Below are positions 225 to 63,926 of a DNA stretch of 64,000 nt, in pieces. The translations under genes and the position numbers were made by a program. The notes under the pieces were generated by a model that was not told where the DNA came from, searched no databases, and saw nothing but the letters and a program-made list of their open reading frames with translations. Within the stretch, counting starts at the first letter, position 1, and each line of letters starts with the position of its first letter. This DNA comes from a virus (taxonomy: Duplodnaviria > Heunggongvirae > Uroviricota > Caudoviricetes): positions 86,224-150,223 of IMG/VR virus record IMGVR_UViG_3300022468_000772. The stretch is one strand, 5' to 3'.

Positions 225-300
225 GGGAGTTTAGTTAAGCGGTTATAACACAGAACTCATAATTCTGCAGTCTTGGGTTCGAATCCCGACGCTCCCACCA
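225..300 (+). tRNA. tRNA-Met (anticodon CAT; could be elongator Met or lysidine-modified Ile), CCA encoded
   Basis: Manual cloverleaf: acceptor GGGAGTT/CGCTCCC; D-stem GTTA/TAAC; anticodon stem CAGAA/TTCTG with loop CTCATAA; T-loop TTCGAAT; A73 then CCA at 298-300. Confidence 0.8.
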
Positions 301-1378: not shown

Positions 1379-1641
1379 TATAATTTGTTTCATGCAAATA
1401 CATGAAATAACCTTTGGTCGATTCACAGATTATGTTTTGTTTATCATGGGCTTGAATGCTCGTGGTTACATTCATTTGAATGAGGGATTGACTAGACAAG
1501 CTATGAATCGTCTTGAACAAGAGAAAAGTTTTGTGACAAGTTTTGCAGGTCAAACAACGATGAAAATCAATTTTGTTGATGTATCAATCATCGACATGCA
1601 TAAAGAATTTAAAACAAGCGATAGAAAGAAATGGGGCCACA

Positions 1642-2061
1642 ATGAGCTTAATGGAACAGATCAAGCGTGATCAATTGGAATTTCGCAAGCAACGTCAATC
1701 GGTTGAAGTCAGTGTTCTGACTACACTGATTGGTGAGGCTTCGGCAATCGGTAAGAACAACGGTAATCGTGAAACTACCGATGCTGAAGTCATCGCACTG
1801 GTGAAGAAATTTCTGGATAACAATATTGCTACTATTAAACTATTAGCTATTGATAATACTCAGGTTGATGTGTTAAACACAGAAAATGCTGCTTTGCAGG
1901 TTTACTTGCCAAAGCAAATGTCTGAGCAAGAAATTCGTGATGCATTGGCGACATGTAGCAAGGAACTTGGAAAGATCATGGGACACTTTAAGAAGGCGTT
2001 CCCTGGCATGTATGATGGTACCCTTGTCTCTCGACTTGCTAAAGAATATGTAGCGAGTTAA
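1642..2061 (+). CDS. GatB/YqeY-domain protein
   Basis: MSLMEQIKRDQLEFRK ... GKIMGHFKKAFPGMYDGTLVSRLAKEYV matches the YqeY family; start taken at the internal M. Confidence 0.6.
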   Translation: MSLMEQIKRDQLEFRKQRQSVEVSVLTTLIGEASAIGKNNGNRETTDAEVIALVKKFLDNNIATIKLLAIDNTQVDVLNTENAALQVYLPKQMSEQEIRDALATCSKELGKIMGHFKKAFPGMYDGTLVSRLAKEYVAS

Positions 2062-5629: not shown

Positions 5630-5914
5630 ATGAGTATCGTGCAAACATCCCAAATCAACTTCCCTAACGATCCCGCAACCCTGAAGACCATTAAGGATGC
5701 ATTGTTTGAAATCAGCGCATCCATGACACGTGTAGAGGGTGAAAAAGATTTCCAGAAAGAAGCACTGAGTGATCTGGCTGAGAAAACCGAAGTGCCGGTC
5801 AAGTTTTTAAAGACATGTGCCTCCATTTACCATCGCCAGAATAAAGACCAAGTAGAAGGTGATAAAGAGGCAGTTTTTGAGCTTTATGACGCTATTTTTG
5901 GAGAGGCTTCTTAA
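5630..5914 (+). CDS. hypothetical protein
   Basis: 94-aa acidic ORF with RBS AAAGGAAAT. Confidence 0.4.
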   Translation: MSIVQTSQINFPNDPATLKTIKDALFEISASMTRVEGEKDFQKEALSDLAEKTEVPVKFLKTCASIYHRQNKDQVEGDKEAVFELYDAIFGEAS

Positions 5915-6836
5915 TAGCGTACCAACCTCTAAAAGGTACAACTTTATCTAAATGGTGGTTCATTTTAATAGGTGATCCACCATTTCTATATGATATTCGT
6001 AGTGCCGATTCTGGTAGACCATTTTCATTACAGTATTCGATAAAGTTACCGACTGCAGTGTGACGCAAAATACCAAGTTCATCAAAAATTTCAATAATCG
6101 AAGCAGTATTTGAGTTTGAACCTGATACCGCCAGTTTGTGATTTTCTTTATGTGTTTCTGACCATTCGTTAGGAATACCTATTTTAGAATCTGAGATTTT
6201 TTTTCTATGTTCTTGTGAAAGCGGCACACCTTTATTAGGATTTGAATATGATGGATTTAAATCAGACATCTTCTGATTTTTATTCCAAACAGGCTTTTCT
6301 TTGCGTGTCTTTTTAAATTTTTCGATTGTTTCTTCTGAATGTTTCTTACCTTTCATTCCAGAAACACGACCTTTGAGTGATGCACTTATCTTTTTCTTTG
6401 TTGCTTCCGAAGGCTTTCTACGTTTTTTGACACCTGCGCGAATATTTTCTAGTGCTGCTCCAGTTCTTTTTGGGTATTTCTTACCCTTTAATTTTGAAGC
6501 AACACCTTTGAGTGGATTATACTTTTCATCATATGCCATTTTTGATGCAAAGGCTCTGTTAATATAAAGTGGATTATTTGGAGCATTAACTGCTTTCTGC
6601 AACTTATTTTCTTTCTCTGTTGCCTCATCTCTCGTTTTAAATGTTTTTAAAATGATTGTTTTGAAAAGGTGAGGGCTTGTTGCTCTTTCTGAAGCCCAAA
6701 TGCTTTTAAACATTTTTGATGAAACACTACCGTTGTAGTTTTCATTTTGTATCCGGTTTACAGTTGTTGAGCCGATATAAAAAGGTGGAAGTTTGTTACC
6801 ACTATAGATAGTGAGATAGACGCAATAAATAGACAT
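5892..6836 (-). CDS. GIY-YIG homing endonuclease (Seg-like) with NUMOD3-type DNA-binding repeats
   Basis: IYCVYLTIY...FYIGST...R (GIY-x10-YIG-R); four repeats of S-E-x-x-K-K-I-S-x-S-x-K-G; opposite strand to flanking core genes. Confidence 0.75.
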   Translation of the reverse strand: MSIYCVYLTIYSGNKLPPFYIGSTTVNRIQNENYNGSVSSKMFKSIWASERATSPHLFKTIILKTFKTRDEATEKENKLQKAVNAPNNPLYINRAFASKMAYDEKYNPLKGVASKLKGKKYPKRTGAALENIRAGVKKRRKPSEATKKKISASLKGRVSGMKGKKHSEETIEKFKKTRKEKPVWNKNQKMSDLNPSYSNPNKGVPLSQEHRKKISDSKIGIPNEWSETHKENHKLAVSGSNSNTASIIEIFDELGILRHTAVGNFIEYCNENGLPESALRISYRNGGSPIKMNHHLDKVVPFRGWYAIKKPLQK

Positions 6837-23559: not shown

Positions 23560-25194
23560 TTAAGAAAACAACCACTTTATAAATGGGTCGCCACCACCGC
23601 CGAATTTATTCAAATCCAGTTCATGTGGTTTTAAATCAATAGAATCTCTTCCATCATCAATAAAGCCAAATGGCAGCATGTTTTCATCAATGTATTGCTC
23701 TGTCCTTTTAGCCAGAATTGCTCGAATGTTTGTATCGGTCAATTCGGCAAAAAGAGGCTGCTTTGTCAACCAAGCAAACAACCACAAACAGGTCATCAAA
23801 TCATCGTTAATTTGTTCGTCTTCGGCAGCATATGATGCACCTTTCTGAGCGAAAACACCAAACTCTTGCAGAATTTTGTGGGAGTTGATAATCATCTGAT
23901 CCAGTTCGACAAGACCTTTCAAAGTTGCGCAGCCGATTGATTTAACTTTCTTTGTGGTACGAACGCCCGGATACCCTCTCCCCTCATTCAGAACATCCTT
24001 GTACGTGAAATACAAATTCTCATACTCAAACTCGTAGAACAAATTCGAAGAAACCATCTCACCTAGATCATTCACTTCGATCAACACATATGCATCATTA
24101 TAGCTCTTCGCCACGGTGTAAATCAGATACGGATAGCTCTCAGGTGAAATTTCGTTATCCTTGTAGATAGCAACAATCTTATATGGAATTGTAGTGATAT
24201 CGAACACCACAAACGCAGAATAATCCAAGTGGCGACCACGTGAAGTATCCACTGTAATAACGTAGCTATGACCTTTTTGAGGCTGTTCGAAATACTCCAA
24301 TTTATCCTTTACGAAAATTGGTTCTTGTGTTGTCAAACGAGTTAGTGTAGCACCATTCAAAAGTGTTTTACTCGAACCTTGGAACTGGCATTCAACTTCC
24401 TGCAAATACTTCAATTCACCCAATGTCTGAAGCTGATCCACACGCCATTTTTCATCACGTGTTGGGTTCTCATACCACTCAGCAGCAACAGGGAAAAATC
24501 CGTTGGTACCTTTCTCGGCTTCGACCCACATTTTGTGATAGTGGTTCAAACCTTTAGGGGTTGATGACAGATATATACGGGTGTCTTTACCAGACGAAAT
24601 TGTAGGGAAAACGGATGTGAAGAATTCTTCCGCAATGTTTGGCGGAATGAAGGCTGTTTCATCGATATACAGGGCAGATACGGAGAAACCACGGATCGCG
24701 TTTGGAGAGGTTGCTGCAGTGATGATGCCGCTACCGTTGGAGAGTTCGATGGAGCCTTTGTTCCACTCTTTCACGCCGGGCTGCATCCAGAATGGTAAAT
24801 TCTCATACGAGAATTGGATACGACTCAAAATTTCACGCGCCACCGCAGCCTTGTTAGCCATGATACCGACCAACTTCACATCATTGAAAATAATGAACCA
24901 CAGGAAGAATGCTGCAGTCGTTTGTGTCTTACCTTGCTGGCGACCAATCTTACAGATCACTTTACGGTTATTCACATAAGCGTCAATAATTCGCTCTTGG
25001 AATGGATACAACTGGAAAGGGATAACCCCACGATCCACGTGTACGATTTTTACATAGGTCTTGATAAAGTAAATTGGATCAGCAGCACATTTAGCCCATT
25101 CATCTAATTGCCATTGTGTGTAGTTCATGACTACGCCATGGTTCTTTAAATTCTTGTTGCCGTTGTAATATAAATTTTGATTCTGAGTTGCCAT
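23560..25194 (-). CDS. 17: terminase large subunit
   Basis: Collinear with T4 gp17: EWAKCAADPIYFIKTY, Walker A GRQQGKTQT, YIDETAF, nuclease-domain VDTSRGRHLDYSAFVVFD; start at the M of MATQNQ. Confidence 0.88.
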   Translation of the reverse strand: MATQNQNLYYNGNKNLKNHGVVMNYTQWQLDEWAKCAADPIYFIKTYVKIVHVDRGVIPFQLYPFQERIIDAYVNNRKVICKIGRQQGKTQTTAAFFLWFIIFNDVKLVGIMANKAAVAREILSRIQFSYENLPFWMQPGVKEWNKGSIELSNGSGIITAATSPNAIRGFSVSALYIDETAFIPPNIAEEFFTSVFPTISSGKDTRIYLSSTPKGLNHYHKMWVEAEKGTNGFFPVAAEWYENPTRDEKWRVDQLQTLGELKYLQEVECQFQGSSKTLLNGATLTRLTTQEPIFVKDKLEYFEQPQKGHSYVITVDTSRGRHLDYSAFVVFDITTIPYKIVAIYKDNEISPESYPYLIYTVAKSYNDAYVLIEVNDLGEMVSSNLFYEFEYENLYFTYKDVLNEGRGYPGVRTTKKVKSIGCATLKGLVELDQMIINSHKILQEFGVFAQKGASYAAEDEQINDDLMTCLWLFAWLTKQPLFAELTDTNIRAILAKRTEQYIDENMLPFGFIDDGRDSIDLKPHELDLNKFGGGGDPFIKWLFS

Positions 25195-25195
25195 A

Positions 25196-25230
25196 AAAAA
25201 AGCCCCGAGGCTTTCGACCAAGGGGCTTAC
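25196..25230 (-). terminator. rho-independent terminator after gene 32
   Basis: Minus strand: AGCCCC...GGGGCT stem followed by TTTTTTT. Confidence 0.5.
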
Positions 25231-25257
25231 ATAGTGAAAGTTAATAGTATTTAACTA

Positions 25258-26232
25258 TTAATCCTCAATCAGCGATTTAAAAAACTCGTCGTCATCACCA
25301 GCATCAGACATTGTTGGTACAGGTGGAGCCGACTTAGCTTTGGCAGGAGTTTCCTTAGCCTTAGATGGTGCTTCAGAGGCTTGTTTTGCAAGCCCTTCCA
25401 TTTCATCCAAAACGCCTTCTACGCCTTTTTCTTCAGGTGCAGCAGCCTTGGCCTTACCTTTACCTTTAGGATTGGATGCTACCTCTCCAGTGACCACCAG
25501 ATAACGTTGCTTCAGGTCATCGTAAGACTTGAATTTATCAGGTGCGATTTCAAGGTTAATGTCATACAGACCCTTGAACAATTCTTCAATCTTATCTTCA
25601 TCGCCTTCAAACAAAGGCTTACGCTTCAGGAATGTAGAACCGTCAAAGTTAGGAAACTTTTCAACGATGGTTTGCTTCAGAGAGAATGCAGCACCTTCGT
25701 AAGGATCGAAAGCATTAACTGCTTCAGCGGTTTCCATTTCTCCATCTTCGTTTTCTACAGCTTCAGGTTTAGCTGCGGCAACGATCTTGTCAAAAATAGT
25801 TTTGCCATATTTGAACAAGAAGACCTTACCGTTATTTTCTGGGTTTGCAGGGTCTTTCACAACCAGAATGTTGGAAATGTATTGCAGCTTACGCTTTTGA
25901 CGCTGAACAATTTTCTTGTTTGCATCAATACCAGTGTTCCAAAGCTCACGGTTCACTTCCGCAATGTAATCGGTTTCACCAATCGTGGAGAGAGAATTTT
26001 CGATATACCATTGTTGGGTACTTGGGTCTTTGAACGCATGGGAGTACATACGCACAAATGGGAAGTCTTCGATATTTTTAGAAGGCAAAAATCGGATAAT
26101 AGCAGAACCATTTCCTTCTTTGTCTTTGGTCAATTTCCAATAATTTTTAGAGTCTTCACTGTAATCCTTTTTCGCATTGACAGTATCAATTTGAGAAAGC
26201 AAAGAAGCGAAGTTCATTCCGAATTTAGACAT
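25258..26232 (-). CDS. 32: single-stranded DNA-binding protein
   Basis: [22 protein letters not shown] aligns with T4 gp32 [41 protein letters not shown] aligns with [19 protein letters not shown]; acidic C-tail. Confidence 0.92.
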   Translation of the reverse strand: [324 protein letters not shown]

Positions 26233-33498: not shown

Positions 33499-33609
33499 TT
33501 AAAAATATTTTAGAACACAGGCAACAATAATTGCGATTGCTGCTATATAAACAATACCCTTTACAAGGGCTTTTGTGGCACGTGCCTCTTCTTCATCATA
33601 CCAATCCAT
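33499..33609 (-). CDS. small single-TM protein (36 aa)
   Basis: MDWYDEEEARATKALVKGIVYIAAIAIIVACVLKYF. Confidence 0.25.
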   Translation of the reverse strand: MDWYDEEEARATKALVKGIVYIAAIAIIVACVLKYF

Positions 33610-34042
33610 TTTTATCCTCCCATGGTAATACAGGGTCAGCGATCCAGCGCCGACGCATACGATCCATTGCCTCTGCAGGCACATTGTGAATAGAACCGAA
33701 AGAGCCATGCACGGAAATCACTTGCGGGATAATTCCAAGTTGCAGTGCAATTTCAAAGTAAGGGTTCAGTTCACGCTGAGTAGTGAAAGTGTTGGATACA
33801 ACAACACTCCAACCTTCTTGCAGCTTTTGCGCCACATTAGACTCACACCAGTGATGTGCAGCACCGAGCTTATTCAGGTCGAAGTTGTAGTTACCTTGCT
33901 TGTCATAGAAGTACATGTCAGCTTCATAATGACGCCATCCACCATCCATAGCAATCTTTCGGGCAATGGTACTTTTACCCGAGCCCGGCAAACCCCTCAC
34001 AATCACAAAGTAGGGTTTGGTCTTACCATCCGATGCTTGCAT
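33596..34042 (-). CDS. P-loop kinase (candidate polynucleotide 5'-kinase)
   Basis: Walker A VRGLPGSGKST directly at the N-terminus, as in the T4 Pnk kinase domain; 148 aa. Confidence 0.5.
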   Translation of the reverse strand: MQASDGKTKPYFVIVRGLPGSGKSTIARKIAMDGGWRHYEADMYFYDKQGNYNFDLNKLGAAHHWCESNVAQKLQEGWSVVVSNTFTTQRELNPYFEIALQLGIIPQVISVHGSFGSIHNVPAEAMDRMRRRWIADPVLPWEDKNGLV

Positions 34043-34238
34043 AATAAATTTCCTTCTTGTAGTTGAAAGCAGCACGAACTGCTTCTGGATATACGACATA
34101 CCACAAATTGTCCAATGCAGACATTGTGGTTCCACGAACTGTGCAACGACCTTTACTGTCTGTCTCACGCATCAACTCTTTGTGCATTGCTTCAATGATT
34201 TGTTCGCCAATTTTGATTGCGTCAGACTTAGTGATCAT
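34023..34238 (-). CDS. hypothetical protein
   Basis: 71-aa ORF. Confidence 0.35.
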   Translation of the reverse strand: MITKSDAIKIGEQIIEAMHKELMRETDSKGRCTVRGTTMSALDNLWYVVYPEAVRAAFNYKKEIYYASIGW

Positions 34239-34269
34239 TTTGAACCTCGTTTGAATTTAGATGTATGGA

Positions 34270-35232
34270 TTATACACCAATTTTGTACGGTTTCAAAATA
34301 TCTGTCTTATTTTCCACAAACAAGAAGTCATCCAAGAAATCTCGTTTCACTTCAGACAGTCGCAAATAATTAAGTGACGCATATTCACGAAACCAGCCGG
34401 ATGTCAGAGTCGTACAAATCTTCTGCAACGCTTTCCGGTACAGTTCTTGCATGTAATCACCATCAAATCCAACACCATCTTCCCGATAGCGGTTAATTCG
34501 AATACTTTTGCGGTAAGGCAAATACCCACGCTCCAAAGCAATCACCCAAGCCTCTTCCATGACACATGCATCTTTGACAGCATCAGGTGCATTCTCAAAC
34601 AGATCACCAGATGATAAAACTTCACCCTTAGCGATATGCATATACGCAGGCTTTTCGCCTATAGCAATAGCAGCATGAATTGAGTCATGATCATAGATAT
34701 ATTGTACACCATCATTCGAAAAGAATTCAGATTTACTGACATTCAGTTTGATAGGTGGTCGATTATATGTCTCTTTCTCTCGCAACTCCAGAATCTGTTT
34801 CAGCGGTTCAGAAACTCTAGACTTGTACTGCTTTGACATGTAGGTTTTCAGCTTCTCCATATTTTTATGGAAATGCATAGAATCCCGATACCGGTGTGAT
34901 TCACGGATAACATACATCAAGCTAAGTGGTGCCACATTATAAAGTTTTTCAGGATTCCCTACAGAATCCATCAAATCAAGAATTGCAGCACCAGAAGAAC
35001 CTTTGAAAGCCAGTTCAACTTCGATAATACTAATCTTGTTTGTTTCGTGTTTGACCCGAATAACAAGATGGTTGCTGCTAATCGGATATTGTTCGATGAT
35101 CTTTCCACCAAAGCCATCGAGTAATTGCTTCACAGCATTAGGCCGAACAATAAAATCCCAATCCCGATTTTCATCGATATCGAAATAGTTGTATTCAGCA
35201 CGTGATCCGATTAGAACAGCAGTATTTTTCAT
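34270..35232 (-). CDS. putative pol-beta-superfamily nucleotidyltransferase-fold protein
   Basis: LIGSRAEYNYFDIDENRDWDFIV fits hG[GS]-x7-DxD, with a later IIEVELA acidic strand; 320 aa with a helical C-terminal domain. Confidence 0.3.
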   Translation of the reverse strand: MKNTAVLIGSRAEYNYFDIDENRDWDFIVRPNAVKQLLDGFGGKIIEQYPISSNHLVIRVKHETNKISIIEVELAFKGSSGAAILDLMDSVGNPEKLYNVAPLSLMYVIRESHRYRDSMHFHKNMEKLKTYMSKQYKSRVSEPLKQILELREKETYNRPPIKLNVSKSEFFSNDGVQYIYDHDSIHAAIAIGEKPAYMHIAKGEVLSSGDLFENAPDAVKDACVMEEAWVIALERGYLPYRKSIRINRYREDGVGFDGDYMQELYRKALQKICTTLTSGWFREYASLNYLRLSEVKRDFLDDFLFVENKTDILKPYKIGV

Positions 35233-35690
35233 TAGTAACCTGACGAAGACCAGTATTGATCCGAGTTATTGTAAGAAGATGTAGTGGAGTCACCGAAGTT
35301 ATAAGAGAAGCCCACATAAACAATTTTTGGATCGACGCTGTTAACCAGACGCTCAATTTCGCTTTCCAGACTATTCAGTTGGTTGCGAATTTCAGAAAGT
35401 CGAACGTTGACTGCAGCAGCCTTTTCTTGTTCTTTATCTTCCTTGCGCGCCTTTTCTTCAGCAATACGCTGTGCTTCCTTACGGGCTTGCTCTTTGCGCT
35501 CTTCTTCCTTACGGGCTTCTTCAGCCTTATCCGCTTCCTGCTTCAGTTTAGCGCGGCGTTGTTTTTCGGCATTGGCAGTTTTCAACAAAGCAGCAATCGC
35601 TTTGTCGTTCAATTGGCTCATATCCAATTCAACATCCTGAAGAGTAGATGCGGAAGTGGTGAGTTGCGAAGTTGTTCTACGAGTTACCAT
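35232..35690 (-). CDS. K/E-rich coiled-coil protein
   Basis: EKQRRAKLKQEADKAEEARKEEERKEQARKEAQRIAEEKARKEDKEQEK. Confidence 0.4.
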   Translation of the reverse strand: MVTRRTTSQLTTSASTLQDVELDMSQLNDKAIAALLKTANAEKQRRAKLKQEADKAEEARKEEERKEQARKEAQRIAEEKARKEDKEQEKAAAVNVRLSEIRNQLNSLESEIERLVNSVDPKIVYVGFSYNFGDSTTSSYNNSDQYWSSSGY

Positions 35691-35714
35691 TTCAGTTTCC
35701 TTAAATTAAATGCA

Positions 35715-36284
35715 TCAGTCTCCGTGATGCGTTGACCTTGTTTCAAATTGGAGACACTTACGAATTTCTTCCAGAGAATATGGTTTCATATCCCCTGCAG
35801 CACGTGTATCAATACCAACATCCATACACTTTCCGGTGTTTGGCTGTTGATAGTTTGAATGCCGATGACCATGCAGATGTGTTGAACCGTATCTTGACGA
35901 ATCCCATGATTCAATCGGGAAATGACACAGGATGTAAGAAGTCTTCCCAATCTTCAATTTCTTGTAGTCTTGGATAGACGCAAACACGCCCATGAATCGC
36001 AATTCGCTTTCATCATCATGGTTACCGAGAATCAGATGATGGTTGCAATGATCAGAAATCCGGCGCAGCAGCTTTTTGGTTTCATCATATTTGCCAAAGG
36101 TAATGTCGCCCAGATTCCACAGGTCGCCACCCTCTGGAACGGTGTTAATCACATTATAAATGATCAGTTCATTCATTTCTTCGAGGGTCGAACCCTTACG
36201 CGAGAATGGGCAGAATTGCTGAATTCTTTTATGGAAAAGATGCCAATCCGAAGTGAAGTATGGTTGTTGTTCAATTTTATTCAT
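35715..36284 (-). CDS. calcineurin-like metallophosphoesterase
   Basis: TSDWHLFH (DxH), LGDITF (GDxx), LGNHDD (GNHD/E), HGHRH; start at the M of MNKIEQQ. Confidence 0.6.
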   Translation of the reverse strand: MNKIEQQPYFTSDWHLFHKRIQQFCPFSRKGSTLEEMNELIIYNVINTVPEGGDLWNLGDITFGKYDETKKLLRRISDHCNHHLILGNHDDESELRFMGVFASIQDYKKLKIGKTSYILCHFPIESWDSSRYGSTHLHGHRHSNYQQPNTGKCMDVGIDTRAAGDMKPYSLEEIRKCLQFETRSTHHGD

Positions 36285-36291
36285 ATGTTGA

Positions 36292-36597
36292 TTATACACC
36301 AAAAATCTTGTTGTATTCACTTTTTGAAATTTTTTTGTAGTAGCCATGTTCAGAAAGTGATACATATTCCCCATTTAAAATTTTCTCTCTTAGGGGTTTA
36401 AACAATTCCTCAACAGTGAATTCCTCATATGCGCGATATTGTACCATATCATGAGCATCCTGTAATGTTATCTCATTTTTTGCCATACATTCTCGCGTTA
36501 AAGCACCAATAAATGATTGAACAATTAGTAATGTAGTTTGATCTAAACGTGATCCAACAACCTTTTTGTCAAATTCTTCGCGGAGTCTTGACTCCAT
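36292..36597 (-). CDS. hypothetical protein
   Basis: 101-aa ORF. Confidence 0.4.
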   Translation of the reverse strand: MESRLREEFDKKVVGSRLDQTTLLIVQSFIGALTRECMAKNEITLQDAHDMVQYRAYEEFTVEELFKPLREKILNGEYVSLSEHGYYKKISKSEYNKIFGV

Positions 36598-36598
36598 T

Positions 36599-36916
36599 TC
36601 AAGACTCCAAAACTTTAATCATGTGATCAACCCAAGCGTGGCGGTATGCTTGACGCTTTTCATACGTGCTAAGGTCGATATCTTTATTAAGATATAACCA
36701 TCCAGTAATAAACATTTCACCTTTAAGTTGTTTTCGAATCCAACCTTTAACCAATGCCTTTGATATTACATCACAATCCGTGTCATCAACTGCCCAACAT
36801 ACATATATTTGCTTGTCACTTTTTATGTCGAAGAAATTTCCAGATAATAGTTTTTTCTTCGCTTCCTTCAAGCATTGAGCCATAGCCAAATGTTGTTCAC
36901 GTGTTAAATTTGCCAT
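36599..36916 (-). CDS. hypothetical protein
   Basis: 105-aa ORF. Confidence 0.4.
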   Translation of the reverse strand: MANLTREQHLAMAQCLKEAKKKLLSGNFFDIKSDKQIYVCWAVDDTDCDVISKALVKGWIRKQLKGEMFITGWLYLNKDIDLSTYEKRQAYRHAWVDHMIKVLES

Positions 36917-36923
36917 AATAGCC

Positions 36924-37859
36924 TCACAGAGTAGAGTTCAACAGATTGCGCATGTATTCCAGACGGTCTTGCTCAGGCATTACCTTAAACAATTCATCAT
37001 TACGCAGTTTTTCAATCAGAGGATAAAATTCTTCCTCAACACGAGCCATGTTCAGTGCCATGATATCAGCCTTACGAGCCACCATCTTTTGGAACAGGTA
37101 AGCCTTAGACTTGATCTTGATCATTTCACCTTTAGTGTAGTTGAAGATCACATAACCTTCATGTGGTGCCTCACGTGCCATTTTCACAGCATCTACGAAC
37201 CGCATATCAGGAATAGGGTCATACCACTCAGACACTTCAGCATACTTTGCAATTTCTTGAAAAGCAGAATCACCATAGGTCAGCATCAATCGTGCATTGT
37301 CGAACGAATAGAATTCGGTACCTTGGTAAATAATTGAGAGTAGATAAGCACCATACTTTTCAGGAATGATGTGTGGATCGTCAGGATGGCAAATCTCAAA
37401 CATATAGGTAGTTTCAGGGCACAGGGTTGATGGATCAATATCCTTCAGATACGTTTCGGCATATCCAACAAAATCAGAATCCAGAGAGCCAGTAGTACCA
37501 ATGAGCAGCTTACCGTTGTAAACACTCAAGGATGCCATGAATCCATTCACCTTGCGAGAAACACCCACAAATGTCCGTGGATGCCAGTCTACACCAGCAC
37601 CGTTTTCTTGGTAGTTGTAGATTTTCTTGAATGGTAATTGAACCACATTGAAATCAGCATCCACAACCAAACCACGGCAGTGACGCAGCATTTCGTTTTG
37701 ATCCCACAAATTGTTGAAAAATACACGACGAGTGTACTTCAGTACAGACAGACCTTGATAGCGCTTAGACTCTTTACGAGTCACCAGACGAGGATTGTTC
37801 AGAACGAATTCTTTGAGATTTTCACGGTCAATACCGTAGTTGTGCGAAGTGAGTTCCAT
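36924..37859 (-). CDS. rnlA: RNA ligase 1 (T4 Rnl1 / gp63-like)
   Basis: LRHCRGLVVD aligns with T4 LECRGIMFE; LPFKKIYNY with RPMEKFFNL; motif I SRKVNGFMASLSVYNGKLLIGTTGS with [24 protein letters not shown]. Confidence 0.7.
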   Translation of the reverse strand: MELTSHNYGIDRENLKEFVLNNPRLVTRKESKRYQGLSVLKYTRRVFFNNLWDQNEMLRHCRGLVVDADFNVVQLPFKKIYNYQENGAGVDWHPRTFVGVSRKVNGFMASLSVYNGKLLIGTTGSLDSDFVGYAETYLKDIDPSTLCPETTYMFEICHPDDPHIIPEKYGAYLLSIIYQGTEFYSFDNARLMLTYGDSAFQEIAKYAEVSEWYDPIPDMRFVDAVKMAREAPHEGYVIFNYTKGEMIKIKSKAYLFQKMVARKADIMALNMARVEEEFYPLIEKLRNDELFKVMPEQDRLEYMRNLLNSTL

Positions 37860-49202: not shown

Positions 49203-49543
49203 AGGTATGGCGCGTTTGGATCATCCCAACGCCTGATAGGATGGTCAAATGGTCTATATGGCAGAGGATCAACAGGCACTTTCTTTTTTGGAGGGAATAA
49301 CTTATTGATATCATCAAGAGTCAAACCCTGTTGTTTAGGCGCGGGAGTTTTCGGATCATCCTTTTTGACAGGGTTCAGGATATTCCCGAGAGAAATCCAA
49401 AGATCACGTGCGTCATCCATGGACAGGTTGTGTACAACACCATCCAACTCAATTGTTACTGTAGCTTTTACCGACATATAAGTTCCCCTGTAATATCTTC
49501 TAATATAACTTCGATTGTTTCCATCATTACTTGATTTCATCAA
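49196..49543 (-). CDS. hypothetical protein
   Basis: 115-aa ORF. Confidence 0.4.
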   Translation of the reverse strand: MMKSSNDGNNRSYIRRYYRGTYMSVKATVTIELDGVVHNLSMDDARDLWISLGNILNPVKKDDPKTPAPKQQGLTLDDINKLFPPKKKVPVDPLPYRPFDHPIRRWDDPNAPYLC

Positions 49544-50939
49544 ATGAATTTGCTTCCAGCTTGTCGTGGCGCACCTTCTCGAAACGTGGCAAGAAAAGAG
49601 AGTAAACGGTAGAGTCGCGTTTGAGAATCTTTTCGTTGTAGGTCAATTCCACGATGGAGCCAAGATTGATTTCAGTATCACCTGGATATGCCTCATACGT
49701 CATCCACAAAGACTCACCACTTGGGCTTGTACCTGCAGCAAGACTATATTCAACACACTTATTGAAGATATTGGCAGTGATTTCAGCACGTAGCTTCAGT
49801 GTGAAACCAGACATATTCACGACTACTTTATCATCGCGGGATGTCATTGTCAAAGAGCCAACATAACCTTCAAACTCACCTTGACCATCAATGTATCCAG
49901 TGACTTTCAATTCGCAGGTTTCTTCAGCCTTCATCTTCAAGATTTTCTTGGAACGACGGTCTTCCCACAATACGGAAGAGTCTTTCAGCATTGCACCTTC
50001 CTCACCAGCATCACGGTACTTTTGGTAGATTGCCTGTGCTTCTTCCAGACTGTAAACAACATCATGTTCAATTGGTCGGATCAAAGGTTTGACATTTTCG
50101 TCAGAAACAAAACGTAATAGTTGACTAAAACGTTCTGCCGCATCCAGCATACATTTTTCGCCACCAAAGAAAACTTCTTCATGAATGACATCCCATGACA
50201 CGGCAACCATGCGCAGAGATTCTTCTTTCGACAGCGTACCTTTGATAGCCTTCGAGCAAATGCCGTTACCGGTCTTACGATCTTCAAATTTACCATTAGG
50301 CTTCAGTACCATCAACTCAGCATCAAAAACGCGCCCAACGCATTCTGGTGCGTTTAGGAGTGCATCGAAGCGACCATGCAGATCAAGAATGTTTCCAGCA
50401 CGAGAATAAATCGTAACAGAATCTTCCTGCACGTGGATAGAGATACGCAGACCATCAGACTTGCGTTCAACGATAACACCACGTTTCCAATCTAGCGCAT
50501 CAGCCAGCTTTTGGCTATATGGGGAAGCCAGCAGGTTTGGATGTTCAGGAATCAGTTTGGGCCAAACATCGTTAGCAGAAGAATCAACACCACAACCGGT
50601 TTTCTTCTTCAGAATTCGCTGGAGAACTTCTGCATCATCTGGATGAACAATACTAAGTGTATTAGCGATTACATCACGAGCAGCATGACCAGTGATCTTT
50701 CTGGTAGCAATCAGTTCATCTAATTCTTTCATTGCCAGAAATAAGGGGTACCATTGACCTGTTGTTGCTGTAGATTCAAATACAATCTCTTTCTTTTGGA
50801 AGAAATTGATGCGCGGATGCAAACACAGACGGAAAAAGTCTTTCAGATCAACATTGTCTTTATGCTGAGTCATGATAGCAACCTTTTCCTTCTTAGAACG
50901 TGTTGCATCGATTTGATTTAGGATTTCGAGGATTGTCAT
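49527..50939 (-). CDS. 30: ATP-dependent DNA ligase
   Basis: N-terminus MTILEILNQIDATRSKKEK aligns with T4 gp30 MILKILNEIASIGSTKQKQ; motif I ERKSDGLR (KxDG); 470 aa. Confidence 0.85.
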   Translation of the reverse strand: MTILEILNQIDATRSKKEKVAIMTQHKDNVDLKDFFRLCLHPRINFFQKKEIVFESTATTGQWYPLFLAMKELDELIATRKITGHAARDVIANTLSIVHPDDAEVLQRILKKKTGCGVDSSANDVWPKLIPEHPNLLASPYSQKLADALDWKRGVIVERKSDGLRISIHVQEDSVTIYSRAGNILDLHGRFDALLNAPECVGRVFDAELMVLKPNGKFEDRKTGNGICSKAIKGTLSKEESLRMVAVSWDVIHEEVFFGGEKCMLDAAERFSQLLRFVSDENVKPLIRPIEHDVVYSLEEAQAIYQKYRDAGEEGAMLKDSSVLWEDRRSKKILKMKAEETCELKVTGYIDGQGEFEGYVGSLTMTSRDDKVVVNMSGFTLKLRAEITANIFNKCVEYSLAAGTSPSGESLWMTYEAYPGDTEINLGSIVELTYNEKILKRDSTVYSLFLPRFEKVRHDKLEANSFDEIK

Positions 50940-50952
50940 TGTTTGTTCTTTC

Positions 50953-51336
50953 TCAATATGAAACTTCACCGGCTCGATCAAAGTATTTCTTGCCAGTTTT
51001 CTTTGCATCGATAGTATACACGATTTTCCTGCGCCAGTCGCCTGATTTGATATCTTTTTCAGTCACAAACTGATTCGGTTCCCAATGATGATACTTTTTA
51101 TAGCAACGCTCAATATCAACCATGTCTTCATCGGTCAGTTGCGCGTCTTTGTTGTTTGTGTCTATGCGCTTTTCATAGAGGCATCCCTTTTTCATACCCT
51201 CAAAAGAGTATTTGTAAAGAGGCATAGCAGTAACACCATCAACAGGCATCACATCACCAACAATCCCATTCCAGATAGTGATTTCTGGATTACCTTTGAT
51301 CTTGGAAAGAATCTCGATTAGTTTATTCTTTCTCAT
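50953..51336 (-). CDS. hypothetical protein
   Basis: 127-aa ORF. Confidence 0.4.
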   Translation of the reverse strand: MRKNKLIEILSKIKGNPEITIWNGIVGDVMPVDGVTAMPLYKYSFEGMKKGCLYEKRIDTNNKDAQLTDEDMVDIERCYKKYHHWEPNQFVTEKDIKSGDWRRKIVYTIDAKKTGKKYFDRAGEVSY

Positions 51337-51730: not shown

Positions 51731-52384
51731 TTATTGTGTTGCTTGCCAGCGACGGAAGTTTTCTTCGGCCTTCTTATTGTACTCGACAAAAGCGCCAGTG
51801 TATAGATTTTCCCATGTTTGGAAACTAACTTTGATACCCTCTTCTACACTCCAGATGTCGGCAAACATTGTTTCATCGACAGCAGGTGTGTACACAAATG
51901 TGGTGCAATAAAAATCTCGTCCATCACCACCAACCACAATCTCGCTGAAGATGGGTACGAACAATTCAGAACGCAGGTTCAGACCAGTTTCTTCAGCAGT
52001 CTCACGCACGATGGCTTGATGGATAGTCTCACCAGCGTCTTGTTTACCGCCCGGCAGCGCAAGAATATCCGTGTTTCGGCGTGTTGTTGTCAACACCTTA
52101 CCGGATGTGCTATGAATGATCACGGCTGCAGAGTTAGCGAGTGTACGCTTACTTGTATCTACATAAGTTTGTTGAGGGATAGCCGGTGTCTCAGATTTAG
52201 CCAAGACAAAGTAGACTTCAATATTGTCTTCGCGCTGAAAATCTGCGCATGCGATACCTTCACAAAAGTTTTTTCTTTCACCAGTAGTATCAAAATGACA
52301 GATACTACATGGATTTGGTGTGCTTCCAACGACAATTGGGATTACTTTAACTCCACCCCAAGTTTCAACAGCTAAATTTTTCAT
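51731..52384 (-). CDS. Nudix hydrolase with N-terminal Cys cluster
   Basis: Nudix box GGKQDAGETIHQAIVRETAEETGL (Gx5Ex7REUxEExGU); N-terminal CSICH...CEGIAC. Confidence 0.75.
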   Translation of the reverse strand: MKNLAVETWGGVKVIPIVVGSTPNPCSICHFDTTGERKNFCEGIACADFQREDNIEVYFVLAKSETPAIPQQTYVDTSKRTLANSAAVIIHSTSGKVLTTTRRNTDILALPGGKQDAGETIHQAIVRETAEETGLNLRSELFVPIFSEIVVGGDGRDFYCTTFVYTPAVDETMFADIWSVEEGIKVSFQTWENLYTGAFVEYNKKAEENFRRWQATQ

Positions 52385-52398
52385 ATTTCTCTCCAAAA

Positions 52399-52424
52399 GA
52401 AAAGGCACCGGTTAGGATGCCTTT
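52399..52424 (-). promoter_or_regulatory. hairpin plus U-tract in the Nudix 5' leader, after the TAXI gene stop
   Basis: Minus strand: -10-like TGTGATATAAT, then AAAGGCATCCTAACCGGTGCCTTT + TCTTTT, then RBS GGAGAG and the ATG. Confidence 0.3.
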
Positions 52425-59302: not shown

Positions 59303-59642
59303 ATTTTTCTTGATTTATCTTATCTGAGATAAATTTTAAAAAATCGTTGTCATTCAGTTTGTCATTTTTCCTTTGAATTTCGTACAACTCAGTGCCTGTA
59401 AAACCATATTTTATCAATTTCATAAGGATACGCTGGATCGTGCCATTTGAAGATTGAATGTTTAACGTCATGCTTCCAGTGCGATCTAGATAATCCAATT
59501 CATTTTCATCCAACAAGCAACCTAGTGCGCAGTAGCATAATTGATCTTTTTCATAGTTGAACCGGCGATAAAAATATGATACTCTGTTCCCACTCAGGGT
59601 AAGTTCCAAAATTTTCTTGAGTGCTTCGATTTTAGTTGACAT
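59292..59642 (-). CDS. hypothetical protein
   Basis: 116-aa ORF. Confidence 0.4.
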   Translation of the reverse strand: MSTKIEALKKILELTLSGNRVSYFYRRFNYEKDQLCYCALGCLLDENELDYLDRTGSMTLNIQSSNGTIQRILMKLIKYGFTGTELYEIQRKNDKLNDNDFLKFISDKINQEKSML

Positions 59643-60684
59643 TGTTAATTACCTCTTTCATTTGCTTCAAACGTTCTTCGATGGTTCCGGTAAGAATTGT
59701 GTATTCTAACCCAAAATCCTGCAAAACATCACAGTAATAATTATGAACACTCTGACGGAAGTTTTCATCACGGCGTGTTCCATCCTGATCAAATGGGATA
59801 TCTGGAACACAGATAAAGATATGCGCGTAACGATGCATGTCTTGAAAGTTGTATGACCTTAGAAAACGGTCTACACGACCAAATATAACCTCAGAATAAA
59901 CGGAAGTAGTAACCGAACATGTGTCACAGATCACAAAGTCTTTACTCGTGTCATAGGCTCGTTGAGCAGCAATGTATTCCTGTTGGCGTTGAACCTCTGC
60001 AATTTGGCGCATATTTTTGAACACGAGTTTACCATCGGTTTGTTCCCACAATTCGCGACCATATTCAAAGACAGGCACAATATCAAATTTCTTAGAAGCA
60101 CGTTGCACGATGGTTGTCTTTCCAGAAGATTCGCCACCGAGGATCAGAATGCGCGGAATAAAGGTAGCAAACACTTCTGGATGCACCCAATCTTCGATAT
60201 CACGGTAGTTCTTTTCAATCATTTCACGCAGCATTGTACCGGATACTTTGTTCACTTCGCGGTCTTCATCAACCATAGAGAACTGGCATTCTGGAGAAAT
60301 TGTTCCAGCCAACATATAACCATATGACTCAGAAGCAAAAACAACATCAACACCATCACCATCAGGGAAATATTCTCTGATCTTGTCACGGCAGAATTCA
60401 CGATGGATGAATGCCGGTTCGTCATCAAGTGGAATTGAATCAATTTCTGGATTCAATACAACTGCTTCCAGACGCCCAGAATCAATTTCATTCTTGTAAA
60501 TTGTGTCGAGCCAGTATTGGCGTGTCGTGCTGTCACAGCCGAAGAATTCTTCAGATGTGTAGCTCAAAACAAACACTTGTTCGCAGCGTTCCAGTGCAGT
60601 TTCGATCACATATTGATGCCCTTTGTGCAGTGGTGCAAATTTACCAACCACAAAGCCACGTTTGAATTCTTTATTTGTTGTCAT
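59632..60684 (-). CDS. nadR: NadR-like bifunctional NMN adenylyltransferase / ribosylnicotinamide kinase
   Basis: N-terminal (H/T)xGH nucleotidyltransferase motif VGKFAPLHKGHQ; C-terminal Walker A GGESSGKTT as in NadR RNK domains; 350 aa, no HTH. Confidence 0.65.
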   Translation of the reverse strand: MTTNKEFKRGFVVGKFAPLHKGHQYVIETALERCEQVFVLSYTSEEFFGCDSTTRQYWLDTIYKNEIDSGRLEAVVLNPEIDSIPLDDEPAFIHREFCRDKIREYFPDGDGVDVVFASESYGYMLAGTISPECQFSMVDEDREVNKVSGTMLREMIEKNYRDIEDWVHPEVFATFIPRILILGGESSGKTTIVQRASKKFDIVPVFEYGRELWEQTDGKLVFKNMRQIAEVQRQQEYIAAQRAYDTSKDFVICDTCSVTTSVYSEVIFGRVDRFLRSYNFQDMHRYAHIFICVPDIPFDQDGTRRDENFRQSVHNYYCDVLQDFGLEYTILTGTIEERLKQMKEVINNVN

Positions 60685-60876: not shown

Positions 60877-60904
60877 CCTTTACTTCAACTAGATTATACC
60901 ACAG
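60877..60904 (-). promoter_or_regulatory. early promoter -10 (copy)
   Basis: rc: CTGTGGTATAATCTAGTTGAAGTAAAGG. Confidence 0.4.
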
Positions 60905-61475
60905 ATTCCAGTCGTTGAATCTTCCGCCACTGGAAATAAGAGACAATTGCGTTGATCCAGAAGAAACCATACAGGATCGAAGTCAGATACAACTCACGTG
61001 ACCAGAACAAAGGTACGCTGATAGTGTTCACAATCAACCAAATACCCCAAGATTCAATACGCTTGCGCATCAGCATAAATTGACCAACAACACTCATTGT
61101 CAGTACAACAGAGTCTACAAAGGGTGCATAGGCGTCTGTAAACTTGTGCAGGAGCATTCCATAAGCGACAGCAACCAAAATTGCCGATACCAGATACGTC
61201 ACAAGTTGGTCAGATGGTGTATTGGTGATCTTGAGTACACCATTGTCGTTCTTTGCATTCCAGCCGATCCAGCCAATCACGCCTGTGATCAGGAAGAATA
61301 CCTGCAGAGTCGCATCCGCATATAGCTGGTTGTTGAAAAACAACACACCGAACAAAGCAGACGAAACAATACCTGTCCACCAAGTGTGGATGTTATTGCG
61401 ACCAGCCAAAAAGATACACAATGCAGTCATGATGTTGGCTGCAAGTTCGAGGGGTGTCCAAGTAAAAATGTTCAT
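60894..61475 (-). CDS. pnuC: PnuC-like nicotinamide riboside transporter
   Basis: Polytopic membrane protein; LYADATLQVFFLITGVIGWIGW matches the PnuC signature LYA...LQ.FF...YGWY.W; adjacent to nadR as in bacteria. Confidence 0.6.
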   Translation of the reverse strand: MNIFTWTPLELAANIMTALCIFLAGRNNIHTWWTGIVSSALFGVLFFNNQLYADATLQVFFLITGVIGWIGWNAKNDNGVLKITNTPSDQLVTYLVSAILVAVAYGMLLHKFTDAYAPFVDSVVLTMSVVGQFMLMRKRIESWGIWLIVNTISVPLFWSRELYLTSILYGFFWINAIVSYFQWRKIQRLESVV

Positions 61476-61494
61476 GATAAATTTCCTTTTGATT

Positions 61495-61872
61495 TCAGTT
61501 AGTTTCAAATTTAGATTTCAATCGCAGGTATTCTGCATACTCAGGGTCATTATCTCGCTTGATAGTTGCAATAGTTTTTTCAACAACACTATCGGTGATA
61601 AAAGAACTATTATAGCTCATGACAGTGGTAACAAACGCTTTGAGAATCACTTCAACAATTTCTTTGGTGATTTCTGGCTTTACAGCGTGTTCCAGAATAG
61701 ATGCGGATTCATCATCCACTTCAAACCATGTCTCTTCGCCATAATTTATACTTGTCTTTGTATCCCATAACGCCCAAATTTTATGCCTATCGATACGAGT
61801 GACTGTACCTGTATCTATATTGGTAGGCATCTTGTAAGCTACTTTGTCACCTACACTATATTCTGTTGTCAT
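61495..61872 (-). CDS. hypothetical protein (paralogue of 58316..58702)
   Basis: See paralogue entry at 58316..58702. Confidence 0.45.
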   Translation of the reverse strand: MTTEYSVGDKVAYKMPTNIDTGTVTRIDRHKIWALWDTKTSINYGEETWFEVDDESASILEHAVKPEITKEIVEVILKAFVTTVMSYNSSFITDSVVEKTIATIKRDNDPEYAEYLRLKSKFETN

Positions 61873-62390: not shown

Positions 62391-62903
62391 TTATTCGTCG
62401 CGGTTAATAATTTCAAACATTTTCCAAAACAAAGGAAAATCAGAAGCACGTTTCAATGTTGGCATCATCAGACGCTTCTCTGGAAAGTACGTGCCATAGG
62501 CAAACTTCGGATCGTAGCGTTCAATCGACTTGGTGTTGTCGAAAATATCGCAAATACGAATCTCTAGAACATCGCGAAATTGATCAGAAAGCCACTGTCG
62601 GTCAATAGCTTGACGAGTAGCGCGATTGCCATCTTCTGGCTTTGATGGATTTGTCATGCCTTTGACCATGCGCAACACATCATTACCAAAGGCAGCAATA
62701 TCTTTTTCTGGGCAATTAGTATCTTCCAATACGTCATGCATCCATGCTGCGCAGATTTGATCTTCGGTGCCGCCATTGTCTCGAATCAGTTTTGCAACTG
62801 CAGCGGGATGAACGATGTAAGGTTCACCTGTGTACTTACGTACTTGATGTTGGTGCCAAAATGTGGCGAGTTCACGTGCCCGTTTTATTTTTAGAGTTTT
62901 CAT
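62391..62903 (-). CDS. small alarmone hydrolase (SpoT/Mesh1-like HD-domain (p)ppGpp hydrolase)
   Basis: YIVHPAAVAKLI ... ICAAWMHDVLEDT matches the RelA/SpoT HD motif Y..HP..VA..L...AALLHDVVEDT; 170 aa. Confidence 0.6.
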   Translation of the reverse strand: MKTLKIKRARELATFWHQHQVRKYTGEPYIVHPAAVAKLIRDNGGTEDQICAAWMHDVLEDTNCPEKDIAAFGNDVLRMVKGMTNPSKPEDGNRATRQAIDRQWLSDQFRDVLEIRICDIFDNTKSIERYDPKFAYGTYFPEKRLMMPTLKRASDFPLFWKMFEIINRDE

Positions 62904-63194: not shown

Positions 63195-63926
63195 TTACAA
63201 ATCTTCTTCATGAACGTTTGTCGGATAGTGACCAGTAATATGAGCGTCCCATACGTTGATCATATCACCATTATGATCTTGATATCGCTGCGGTTTGTGA
63301 TGAATTCGCAACTCATGACCACGGTGAAGAAGAATTTCTTTTTCACCTGGATTGAAACTGTGTTTCATCATAGAAATCGCATGTGTCCCCTTTGGTACAT
63401 GAATGCGTAACATATGTCTAGCAGTGTCTTCATCACCAATCTTTATAGCTCCATGTTTTTCATCATCTGGATGTGGATACTGTAAAGACGCAAATCCTGC
63501 AGCCTGCTTAATACTCGTTGATGTGGATGTGTATGCTGGCATATGAACATCCACATGTGATTCACCTTCAGCCTTGTTTTTCATGTGCTGACTAGGCGAC
63601 CAGTTAATACCCGAGTACACATGAAAATCTTTTTTGGTCTTATGTTTTTCCAAAACTTTATCCAAATGCTCTACACTCTTGGAAGCAGATTCTTTCCAAG
63701 AGTGTCCATTGTGGTAATTAATAAGTGGTAAATTTGTTGGCTTACTATCATCAGCATAATCACTCAAAACTACCTTTTCTGGTTCGGAAATTTTTTTCTG
63801 ATCTACTTTATTTTCTGAATGAATTTCAGTGTGTTCAGCTTGACTACGCTCAACATCATCCGCCATACGACCTTCTGACAAAGACTTTTTCTTGTCGTCT
63901 TTTAACTTAGAAGCCTTCTCAGTCAT
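63195..63926 (-). CDS. putative ADP-ribosyltransferase-like protein (Alt/Mod-like); frame stays open to the window end, so the gene may start beyond 64000
   Basis: K/E/D-rich N-terminus; FHVYSG ... AYTSTSTS ... PGEKEILLHRG resembles the (R/H)-STS-ExE order of R-S-E class ARTs. Confidence 0.3.
   Translation of the reverse strand: MTEKASKLKDDKKKSLSEGRMADDVERSQAEHTEIHSENKVDQKKISEPEKVVLSDYADDSKPTNLPLINYHNGHSWKESASKSVEHLDKVLEKHKTKKDFHVYSGINWSPSQHMKNKAEGESHVDVHMPAYTSTSTSIKQAAGFASLQYPHPDDEKHGAIKIGDEDTARHMLRIHVPKGTHAISMMKHSFNPGEKEILLHRGHELRIHHKPQRYQDHNGDMINVWDAHITGHYPTNVHEEDL

Follow-up and report, generated by a model that had tools for sequence, protein, structure and literature searches.

In this study we have analysed a 64,000-nucleotide stretch of a tailed phage genome (positions 86,224 to 150,223 of IMG/VR virus record IMGVR_UViG_3300022468_000772; hereafter the window) that carries a putative RNA repair gene set. 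Three genes, all on the minus strand and together spanning 4.3 kb, encode an Rnl1-like RNA ligase (37859-36924, 311 amino acids (aa)), a small metallophosphoesterase (MPE1; 36374-35715, an open reading frame (ORF) of 219 aa) and a P-loop kinase (34042-33596, 148 aa). A second RNA ligase, of the Rnl5 type (43275-42226, minus strand, 349 aa), lies 4.4 kb from the Rnl1-like ligase, and a second metallophosphoesterase (46382-45585, minus strand, 265 aa) is located upstream of the set. The original prediction had assigned these genes to a dispersed RNA repair toolkit. The gene set is present as it was listed there, and all ORFs cited are intact and located on the minus strand at the coordinates given here.

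Enzyme families of the gene set

The Rnl1-like ligase matches phrog_562, the T4 gp63-type family (3.7e-43). Its kinship with Rnl1, originally described as clear, holds at the profile level: single-sequence searches with the window protein matched neither a Pfam family nor a PDB chain, and a family profile was required. With a six-sequence profile, T4 Rnl1 (2C5U) is the only PDB family retrieved at an E-value of 1e-2 or better (2e-12), and an HHalign comparison of 86 relatives with T4-type Rnl1 gives a probability of 98.9% (E-value 2e-16). Homologues of the ligase match PF09511 (RNA_lig_T4_1), which the window protein by itself does not. All 86 family members have R62, K79, K103, N105, G106, E155, E234, G235, K248 and K250 in common. 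Of these, K103/G106, E155, E234-G235 and K248/K250 align with K99/G102, E159, E227-G228 and K240/K242 of T4 Rnl1, and the nucleotidyltransferase motifs I, III, IV and V of Rnl1 are all present in the window ligase. Further upstream, the Rnl1-specific residues R62 and K79 correspond to R54 and K75 of T4, and the position of T4 F77 is occupied by Tyr (69) or Phe (17) among the 86 sequences. Mutational work has established that Arg54, Lys75 and Phe77 are essential in T4 Rnl1. Motif I always reads K-x-N-G-F in this clade (K103-V-N-G-F in the window), compared to KEDGS in T4. Judged by these residues, the window protein is probably an active member of a distinct clade within the Rnl1 family, a type that we found in 718 GenBank phage records.

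The ORF of the kinase reaches upstream to a GTG at 34168. Its start is likely the ATG at 34042, which yields a product of 148 aa, the length of the near-identical metagenomic proteins P0121 and P0122. The protein matches AAA_33 (9.7e-11), phrog_2071 ('ATPase', 1e-35) and phrog_505 ('polynucleotide kinase', 2e-9). Among the PDB entries matched by its profile are PSTK, Pnkp1 (Pnkp1-Rnl-Hen1 system), the RNA 5'-OH kinase of Mucorales, the kinase domain of C. thermocellum Pnkp (CthPnkp), T4 Pnk and mammalian PNKP. Several other PDB matches cover the P-loop segment alone, whereas those that are aligned further are RNA, polynucleotide or tRNA kinases. The P-loop (G20-S-G-K23-S) is invariant, as are D42, 19 residues past the P-loop Lys, and R132, which may be the lid Arg. 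The spacing between P-loop and Asp is as in T4 Pnk and the Mucorales RNA kinase, and in the Mucor kinase MciKIN the equivalent Asp is the general base and has been shown to be essential. The family also has invariant motifs of its own (EAD, AHxWC, SNTFTT and HNVP). The 148-aa P-loop protein is a candidate RNA 5'-OH polynucleotide kinase, and the Pnk-like N-terminal P-loop kinase of the original prediction is borne out by the P-loop and D42 signature and by the profile matches to polynucleotide and tRNA kinases.

Translation of MPE1 likely starts at 36347; the product then has 210 aa, like protein P0241, which is 100% identical. MPE1 matches phrog_547 ('phosphoesterase', 1.5e-48), its score for Pfam Metallophos is slightly under the cut-off, and its binuclear-metal motifs are complete and conserved (D43-x-H45, G89-D90, G117-N-H-D120, H151 and G169-H-x-H172). 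It had been proposed as a component of the Pnkp type. The complete metal site and the conserved, co-oriented association with the other genes described below support a place for MPE1 in the set, but the enzyme belongs to the aq_1665 clade, outside the Pnkp/lambda-phosphatase clade, and lacks the features that would mark a Pnkp member (motif II GDxxDRG, closest kinship to lambda phosphatase or the CthPnkp phosphatase). It falls in no known protein-phosphatase family either. We consider MPE1 a candidate 3'-end-healing enzyme, with a presumed 2',3'-cyclic phosphodiesterase or 3'-phosphatase activity.

The Rnl5-type ligase combines an N-terminal PHA02142 OB domain (PF21189, residues 5-98, 3e-21) with a nucleotidyltransferase domain (PF09414, residues 168-339, 1.4e-21), has no C-terminal OB domain, and aligns full-length with NgrRnl of Naegleria gruberi (5COT, residues 2-346, E-value 4.7e-57). 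Because of these two domains and the full-length alignment, its assignment to the Rnl5/NgrRnl type, as originally proposed, is secure. It is a divergent member, scoring 137.8 bits against the TIGR02306 equivalog cut-off of 151.15. Motif I reads K174-A-E-G, with H, D or E at the third motif position among 35 phage relatives, and the motif I Lys, the motif III/IV Glu and the motif V Lys are conserved. By analogy with its family, the enzyme may prefer nicked duplex RNA. GenBank contains the Rnl5 type in 338 records, and both ligase types occur together routinely in Pakpunavirus and other phages. The window copy is unbroken. In the close relative L086, a contig of 183 kb, the OB and nucleotidyltransferase domains of the Rnl5-type ligase are encoded by two separate ORFs (L086:62-2173). 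An ORF of 263 aa on the reverse strand lies between them; its N-terminus is GIY-YIG-like (YVYICTN...FYIGY), and it looks like a homing-endonuclease insertion.

Linkage, fusions and gene order

Linkage was assessed on 80 viral metagenomic contigs per anchor gene. Around the Rnl1-like ligase, MPE1 is present at 73 of the 80 loci, the kinase at 62 and an Rnl5-type ligase at nine; MPE1 and kinase are always co-oriented in this set, at median gaps of 367 and 582 nucleotides (nt), respectively. When the ligases are grouped at 70% identity, 31 of the 34 resulting clusters have MPE1, 29 the kinase and 27 both. In some of the partner-less loci the ligase is located about 2 kb or less from the contig end; other ligase loci without kinase have 8-10 kb of flank on each side. 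With the kinase as anchor, MPE1 is found at 41 loci, the Rnl1-like ligase at 33 (median gap -7 nt) and an Rnl5-type ligase at 10, and with MPE1 as anchor the corresponding numbers are 58 for the kinase (median gap 135 nt), 26 for the Rnl5-type ligase and nine for the Rnl1-like ligase. A control set anchored on DUF7275 has the Rnl1-like ligase at six loci, the kinase at eight, MPE1 at seven and an Rnl5-type ligase at two. These anchored counts and gaps indicate that the kinase and MPE1 constitute a tight unit which joins either of two unrelated RNA-ligase families.

The same combination is found in four unrelated groups of annotated phages, where the ligase, an 'ATPase' and a 'phosphoesterase' are encoded inside about 4 kb and often abut: Vibrio phage Thalassa (Thalassavirus, Demerecviridae), Ralstonia phage RSP15 (Ackermannviridae), in which the genes stand beside a tRNA cluster, Escherichia phage ESCO5 (Phapecoctavirus) and Pseudomonas phage PAK_P1 (Pakpunavirus). 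In phage naswa (Vequintavirus), two genes annotated as phosphoesterase adjoin the ligase, and no ATPase is annotated.

Covalent fusions between the families were found in a search of 1.8 billion representative proteins. In P0326, P0345 and P0364 an AAA_33 kinase is fused to a ligase of the KxNGF clade, and the kinase domain of P0326 shares 47% identity with the window kinase (E-value 9e-38) and keeps every hallmark motif. P0424 and P0425 comprise three domains in the order of bacterial Pnkp, i.e., kinase, metallophosphoesterase and KxNGF-type ligase. The kinase (DDxR) and phosphoesterase (GDxxDRG, GNHE) of these two proteins are of the classical Pnkp types and not of the window families.

The loci of the Rnl1-like ligase are also rich in tRNA genes, with 463 in 1.13 Mb, distributed over 52 of the 80 loci. 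The sets anchored on the kinase, MPE1 and DUF7275 have 104-160 per about 1-1.2 Mb, and we put the ligase set at 4-5x denser. Two further proteins recur near the ligase and are absent from the window: a DSP/PTP-type cysteine phosphatase (34/80 loci), with weak sub-threshold Pfam similarity to DSP/PTP families including the 'Swiss Army Knife' PTP, and a DUF2828/DUF7788 protein (19/80 loci).

The second metallophosphoesterase, which had been counted as a member of the toolkit, does not share this linkage. It matches Metallophos (1.9e-10) and phrog_1649 (1.6e-42), a PDB sequence search gave no match, and no functional assignment was obtained. Its homologues are encoded 1.1-8.6 kb downstream of the ligase at 9 of the 80 ligase loci. 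Given this low number and the missing assignment, we have excluded it from the repair set.

The dispersal of the repair genes, as originally described, is a local effect that reflects insertions in the lineage of the window. The ligase and MPE1 genes are only about 45 nt apart in L086, and in other phages the genes abut. In the window they are separated by two small minus-strand ORFs of 105 aa (36599-36916) and 101 aa (36292-36597) on a window-specific segment of 620 bp; positions 36918-36297 have no counterpart in L086 by blastn. The 105-aa ORF matches phrog_8421 (1e-9). Thalassa also has a 105-aa ORF at this place, and a conserved fourth component was therefore considered and rejected: the window ORF has no similarity to Thalassa gp179. 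Between MPE1 and the kinase, both the window and L086 carry a gene for a charged coiled-coil protein (35690-35232, minus strand, 152 aa; no Pfam match and a weak match to phrog_312) and a DUF7277/DUF7275 gene (35232-34270, minus strand, 320 aa). Neither gene is found at this place in other lineages (0/80 ligase loci), and the DUF7277/DUF7275 gene, rarely found near the module elsewhere, is treated here as a local insertion. A role as RlaP-like conserved repair component was likewise rejected, as the module genes are present at no more than 10% of the 80 DUF7275 loci. A 71-aa ORF (34238-34023, minus strand) precedes the kinase, and a dCMP deaminase gene (33488-33042, minus strand, 148 aa) follows it.

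The DUF7277/DUF7275 protein is predicted to be a nucleotidyltransferase of the Pol-beta type and to have a MenT-like fold. Its structure model has a pLDDT of 92, and the toxins MenT1, MenT3 (TglT) and MenT4 are its only significant relatives among solved structures. G9-S10...D24-x-D26 is invariant, and a cluster of H113/H182-D183/H186/E226-E227 is conserved in the helical half. MenT toxins are nucleotidyltransferases that act on tRNA, and the modelled fold suggests that the window protein could modify RNA 3' ends.

A clamp loader of the gp44 type, a terminase of the T4 type and gp32 mark the phage itself as T4-like. A megablast search of the window against GenBank phages gave zero matches and found no close GenBank relative; by blastn the sole match is a 150-bp piece of the Rnl1-like ligase gene in Vibrio thalassaviruses. 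Proteins near-identical to those of the window are encoded on metagenomic contigs of 183-198 kb. A scan of the window for promoters and terminators performed no better than on shuffled sequence, and a tRNA was the sole match of an Rfam scan. This tRNA-Met (CAU) gene (225-300, plus strand) adjoins a YqeY/GatB-like ORF (1573-2061, plus strand); a comparable 'tRNA amidotransferase' ORF is present in RSP15 beside its tRNA cluster and repair module. A minus-strand ORF of 314 aa with a NUMOD3 motif (5892-6836), inside a plus-strand gene block, is probably a homing endonuclease. The genes at 23560-26232 were considered as NAMPT/Prs for the reconstitution of nicotinamide adenine dinucleotide (NAD) and rejected, being those of the terminase and gp32.

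Two further minus-strand genes are located between the ligases. A stand-alone macro-domain protein (39742-39290, 150 aa; phrog_335) resembles the ADP-ribosyl glycohydrolase domain of the antitoxin DarG (NCBIfam, 2.5e-15, far under the cut-off), and may reverse ADP-ribosylation or process ADP-ribose derivatives. An HD-like protein of 222 aa (41578-40910) has an H...HD pattern and matches phrog_19425 ('phosphohydrolase', 2.5e-11) only, with no match in Pfam and PDB sequence searches. Genes for a 'metal-dependent phosphohydrolase', which may or may not be of this family, also accompany the ligase in RSP15, PAK_P1 and Thalassa. Beyond the Rnl5-type ligase, a cluster of NAD- and nucleotide-related accessory genes, all on the minus strand (51731-52408, 59632-60684, 60894-61508, 62391-62903 and 63195-63926), encodes a NUDIX hydrolase, a NadR-like AAA_28 protein, a PnuC nicotinamide-mononucleotide transporter, an HD_4 (RelA/SpoT-type) hydrolase and an exoenzyme-type ADP-ribosyltransferase.

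A proposed repair pathway and its alternatives

Defence systems that cleave tRNA are common and include PrrC, RloC, PARIS, retron-Eco7, Schlafen-type and Cas-linked tRNases. To our knowledge, T4 Pnkp and Rnl1 provide the only phage repair answer that is understood experimentally. Because of their gene linkage, we assign a joint function to the kinase, MPE1 and the Rnl1-like ligase, and we propose for this region, with moderate confidence, a split pathway of RNA repair of the 'heal-and-seal' kind. Its starting point would be an RNA cut by an anticodon nuclease or a comparable ribonuclease of the host, with a 2',3'-cyclic phosphate (or 3'-phosphate) and a 5'-OH end left behind. The aq_1665-type MPE1 would strip the 3' phosphate, the 148-aa kinase would put a phosphate on the 5'-OH, and the Rnl1-clade ligase would seal the break via a lysine-AMP mechanism. 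The Rnl5-type ligase would serve as a second sealer, acting on 3'-OH/5'-PO4 nicks in duplex RNA. A defence with two ligases against several host nucleases, as suggested originally, is plausible. The pathway is supported by homology, intact catalytic residues, co-oriented linkage across unrelated phages, fusions and the enrichment of tRNA genes. Presumably, tRNA would be the substrate, the 3'-end chemistry would fall to MPE1 and host nucleases of the above types would be countered. Thus the RNA repair interpretation of the original prediction is upheld for the module of ligase, kinase and MPE1 and by the fusions, but not with respect to the second metallophosphoesterase, a Pnkp-type MPE1 or the dispersal of the genes.

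Several observations weigh against this pathway. The E-values of the PDB profile matches of the kinase are weak (6e-6 to 5e-3), and its family reads EADxYF with no Arg at +3, so that the arginine of the T4 Pnk DxxR motif (Arg38) is missing. In the ligase clade, Lys119 of T4 Rnl1, an essential residue in the T4 enzyme, corresponds to T123 (85/86; 'STTG' in the window ligase where T4 Rnl1 has 'KSKG') and T4 Asp101 to N105 (86/86); these replacements set the KxNGF ligases apart as a separate clade inside the Rnl1 family. Only about 60 aa follow motif V in the window ligase, compared to about 120 in T4 Rnl1, and the global HHalign alignment extends to T4 residue 314, with low confidence there, leaving the final 60 T4 residues unmatched. 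About half of the all-helical tRNA-specificity domain of T4 (residues about 255-374) appears to be missing, and the tRNA-recognition domain of the window ligase appears to be reduced or absent; work of the Shuman laboratory reportedly attributes the tRNA specificity of T4 Rnl1 to this C-terminal domain. Among characterised structures, those nearest to MPE1 are phosphodiesterases and nucleases of a generic kind (YfcE, LpxH, MJ0936, SbcD and the P. putida MPE nuclease), with the Pnkp phosphatase ranking far down the list. Among the 58 kinase-MPE1 pairs, 31 have no recognisable RNA ligase inside 8 kb, and the sole tRNA gene of the window is located 33 kb from the repair genes. The kinase gene of L086 is frameshifted within the P-loop (L086:11215-11760). 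As a truncated 93-aa product (P0126) is recorded on 22 contigs, this frameshift probably reflects true decay of the gene and not an error in sequencing, and the kinase is dispensable, or decaying, in the L086 lineage. In the literature, no experimental work was found on the KxNGF ligase clade, the kinase family or the aq_1665 phosphoesterase clade.

In a broader but less probable reading, which we put forward tentatively, the kinase and the aq_1665-type phosphoesterase would act as a ligase-agnostic cassette for the healing of RNA ends, a non-orthologous replacement of Pnkp that would serve ligases of either the Rnl1 or the Rnl5 clade. In this case, the MenT-like nucleotidyltransferase (DUF7277/DUF7275) acquired in the lineage of the window would rebuild or edit damaged tRNA 3' ends, or counter an attack of the host on tRNA tails, and the aq_1665 clade would represent a new family of RNA 2',3'-cyclic phosphodiesterases or 3'-phosphatases.

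The kinase and MPE1 could also act on small molecules, either by degrading or altering NAD- or nucleotide-derived defence signals or in nucleotide salvage, with the ligase being close by as a result of the clustering of counter-defence genes. We consider this rather unlikely. The recurrent neighbours of the module indeed include NAMPT, NUDIX, HD_4, macro, cREC and DSP-type phosphatase genes, and macro, NUDIX, NadR-like, PnuC, HD_4 and ADP-ribosyltransferase genes are carried by the window itself. Phosphodiesterases (YfcE, MJ0936) and LpxH have the folds closest to MPE1 among characterised proteins, AAA_33 also holds small-molecule kinases, with weak matches of the window kinase to adenylate, gluconate and nicotinamide-riboside kinases, and the pairs without detected ligase fit this explanation as well. 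However, a kinase of the window type is covalently fused to a ligase in natural proteins, its profile matches past the P-loop are polynucleotide and tRNA kinases, and the gaps to the ligase in the kinase-anchored loci are operon-like. In addition, the pair accompanies two unrelated families of RNA ligases, for which mere co-location is a poor explanation.

It is improbable that the set works on DNA ends, whether by the clean-up of 5'-OH and 3'-phosphate termini for the phage DNA ligase, of which T4 Pnkp is capable, or through MPE1 as a PdeM/MPE-like nuclease. Genes for ATP-dependent DNA ligases do occur a few kb from the module in ESCO5, PAK_P1 and naswa, and the window has its own DNA ligase gene (49527-51008). 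Yet the latter is 12 kb away from the module, co-occurrence amounts to 13 of 80 loci, far below that of the RNA ligase partners, the fused or adjacent partner is always an enzyme of an RNA-ligase family, and tRNA genes are enriched near the ligase. Hardly credible, finally, is a main role of the Rnl1-like protein in tail-fibre attachment with incidental ligase chemistry, as suggested by the labels 'RNA ligase and tail fiber protein attachment catalyst' (phrog_562, GenBank), inherited from the non-catalytic role of T4 gp63, since the gene lies among small non-structural genes and enzymes instead of tail genes, the catalytic residues are all invariant, other proteins join the ligase to kinases and phosphoesterases, and its family is shared by siphoviruses and myoviruses whose tail fibres are unrelated; such a role would moreover be compatible with repair.

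The split repair pathway thus remains our preferred reading, and the module is a well-defined and readily testable candidate for a phage answer to tRNA-targeting immunity. It is present in several hundred sequenced phages and makes use of a different kinase, an aq_1665-type phosphoesterase and a distinct Rnl1 clade. If the reading is true, a large family of genes annotated as 'ATPase' and 'phosphoesterase' would gain a function and the aq_1665 phosphoesterases a biochemical role, and a marker set would be at hand to predict which therapeutic phages escape tRNA-targeting immunity.

Comparison with known RNA repair systems

The proposed pathway follows the same logic as the T4 Pnkp (PseT) and Rnl1 (RnlA, gp63) system that counters PrrC, combining a 5'-kinase, removal of the 3'-phosphate and an Rnl1-family ligase. 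The homology of the window ligase to T4 Rnl1 spans the nucleotidyltransferase domain, and the T4 residues R54, K75, F77 (as Tyr), K99, G102, E159, E227, G228, K240 and K242 have counterparts in it. The window ligase differs in having KxNG instead of KEDG, Thr instead of Lys119 and a tRNA-specificity domain that is at best partial. Kinase and phosphatase are encoded by separate genes in the window, whereas T4 unites them in one bifunctional protein, and the 3' enzyme is a binuclear metallophosphoesterase, compared to the HAD/DxDxT-type phosphatase of T4 Pnkp.

The bacterial Pnkp systems (Pnkp/Hen1 and Pnkp1-Rnl-Hen1) perform the same three chemistries. The window kinase has profile matches to the CthPnkp kinase domain and to Pnkp1, and the domain order of bacterial Pnkp is found in combination with the ligase clade of the window in P0424 and P0425. 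The window kinase family is nevertheless different from the Pnk-type kinase of these trifunctional fusions, and no Hen1 methyltransferase was seen in the window set, in a search that was not exhaustive. Among stand-alone kinases, RazKIN, the tRNA-splicing RNA 5'-OH kinase of Mucorales (9D8A), is similar in its small size, GSGKST P-loop and essential downstream Asp, and it ranks among the top matches of the window kinase (2.5e-5). RazKIN is eukaryotic and GTP-specific, however, and its likeness to the phage kinase past the P-loop is weak (5-10 bits for the second stretch). The second ligase has the same layout of OB and nucleotidyltransferase domains as the Rnl5 enzymes NgrRnl and Deinococcus DraRnl, with KAEG in motif I where the NgrRnl type has KLDG.

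Conceptually, the repair set can be recognised as one version of a strategy that is already known, and similar predictions of a kinase with two ligases are already in print. For Pseudomonas phage Adele, a Pakpunavirus, a stand-alone 5'-kinase next to an Rnl1-like ligase and a second, distinct RNA ligase were predicted to restore cleaved tRNA (PMC12846349, 2025). The Adele kinase is described as having no 3'-phosphatase domain, and the accessible part of that article names no partner for the 3' step. A survey of jumbo phages reported ATP-dependent RNA ligases acting with polynucleotide kinases, phosphoesterases and RlaP nucleotidyltransferases (PMC7824862). For these proteins the survey and, in its accessible part, the Adele article are in silico only. 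For this window, our result is mostly confirmatory. What the present analysis adds to both studies is the quantitative linkage, the fusions and the proposal of MPE1 as the likely missing 3' enzyme from outside the Pnkp clade: based on linkage, the aq_1665-type phosphoesterase is the likely 3' partner that Adele-type kinases have been lacking.

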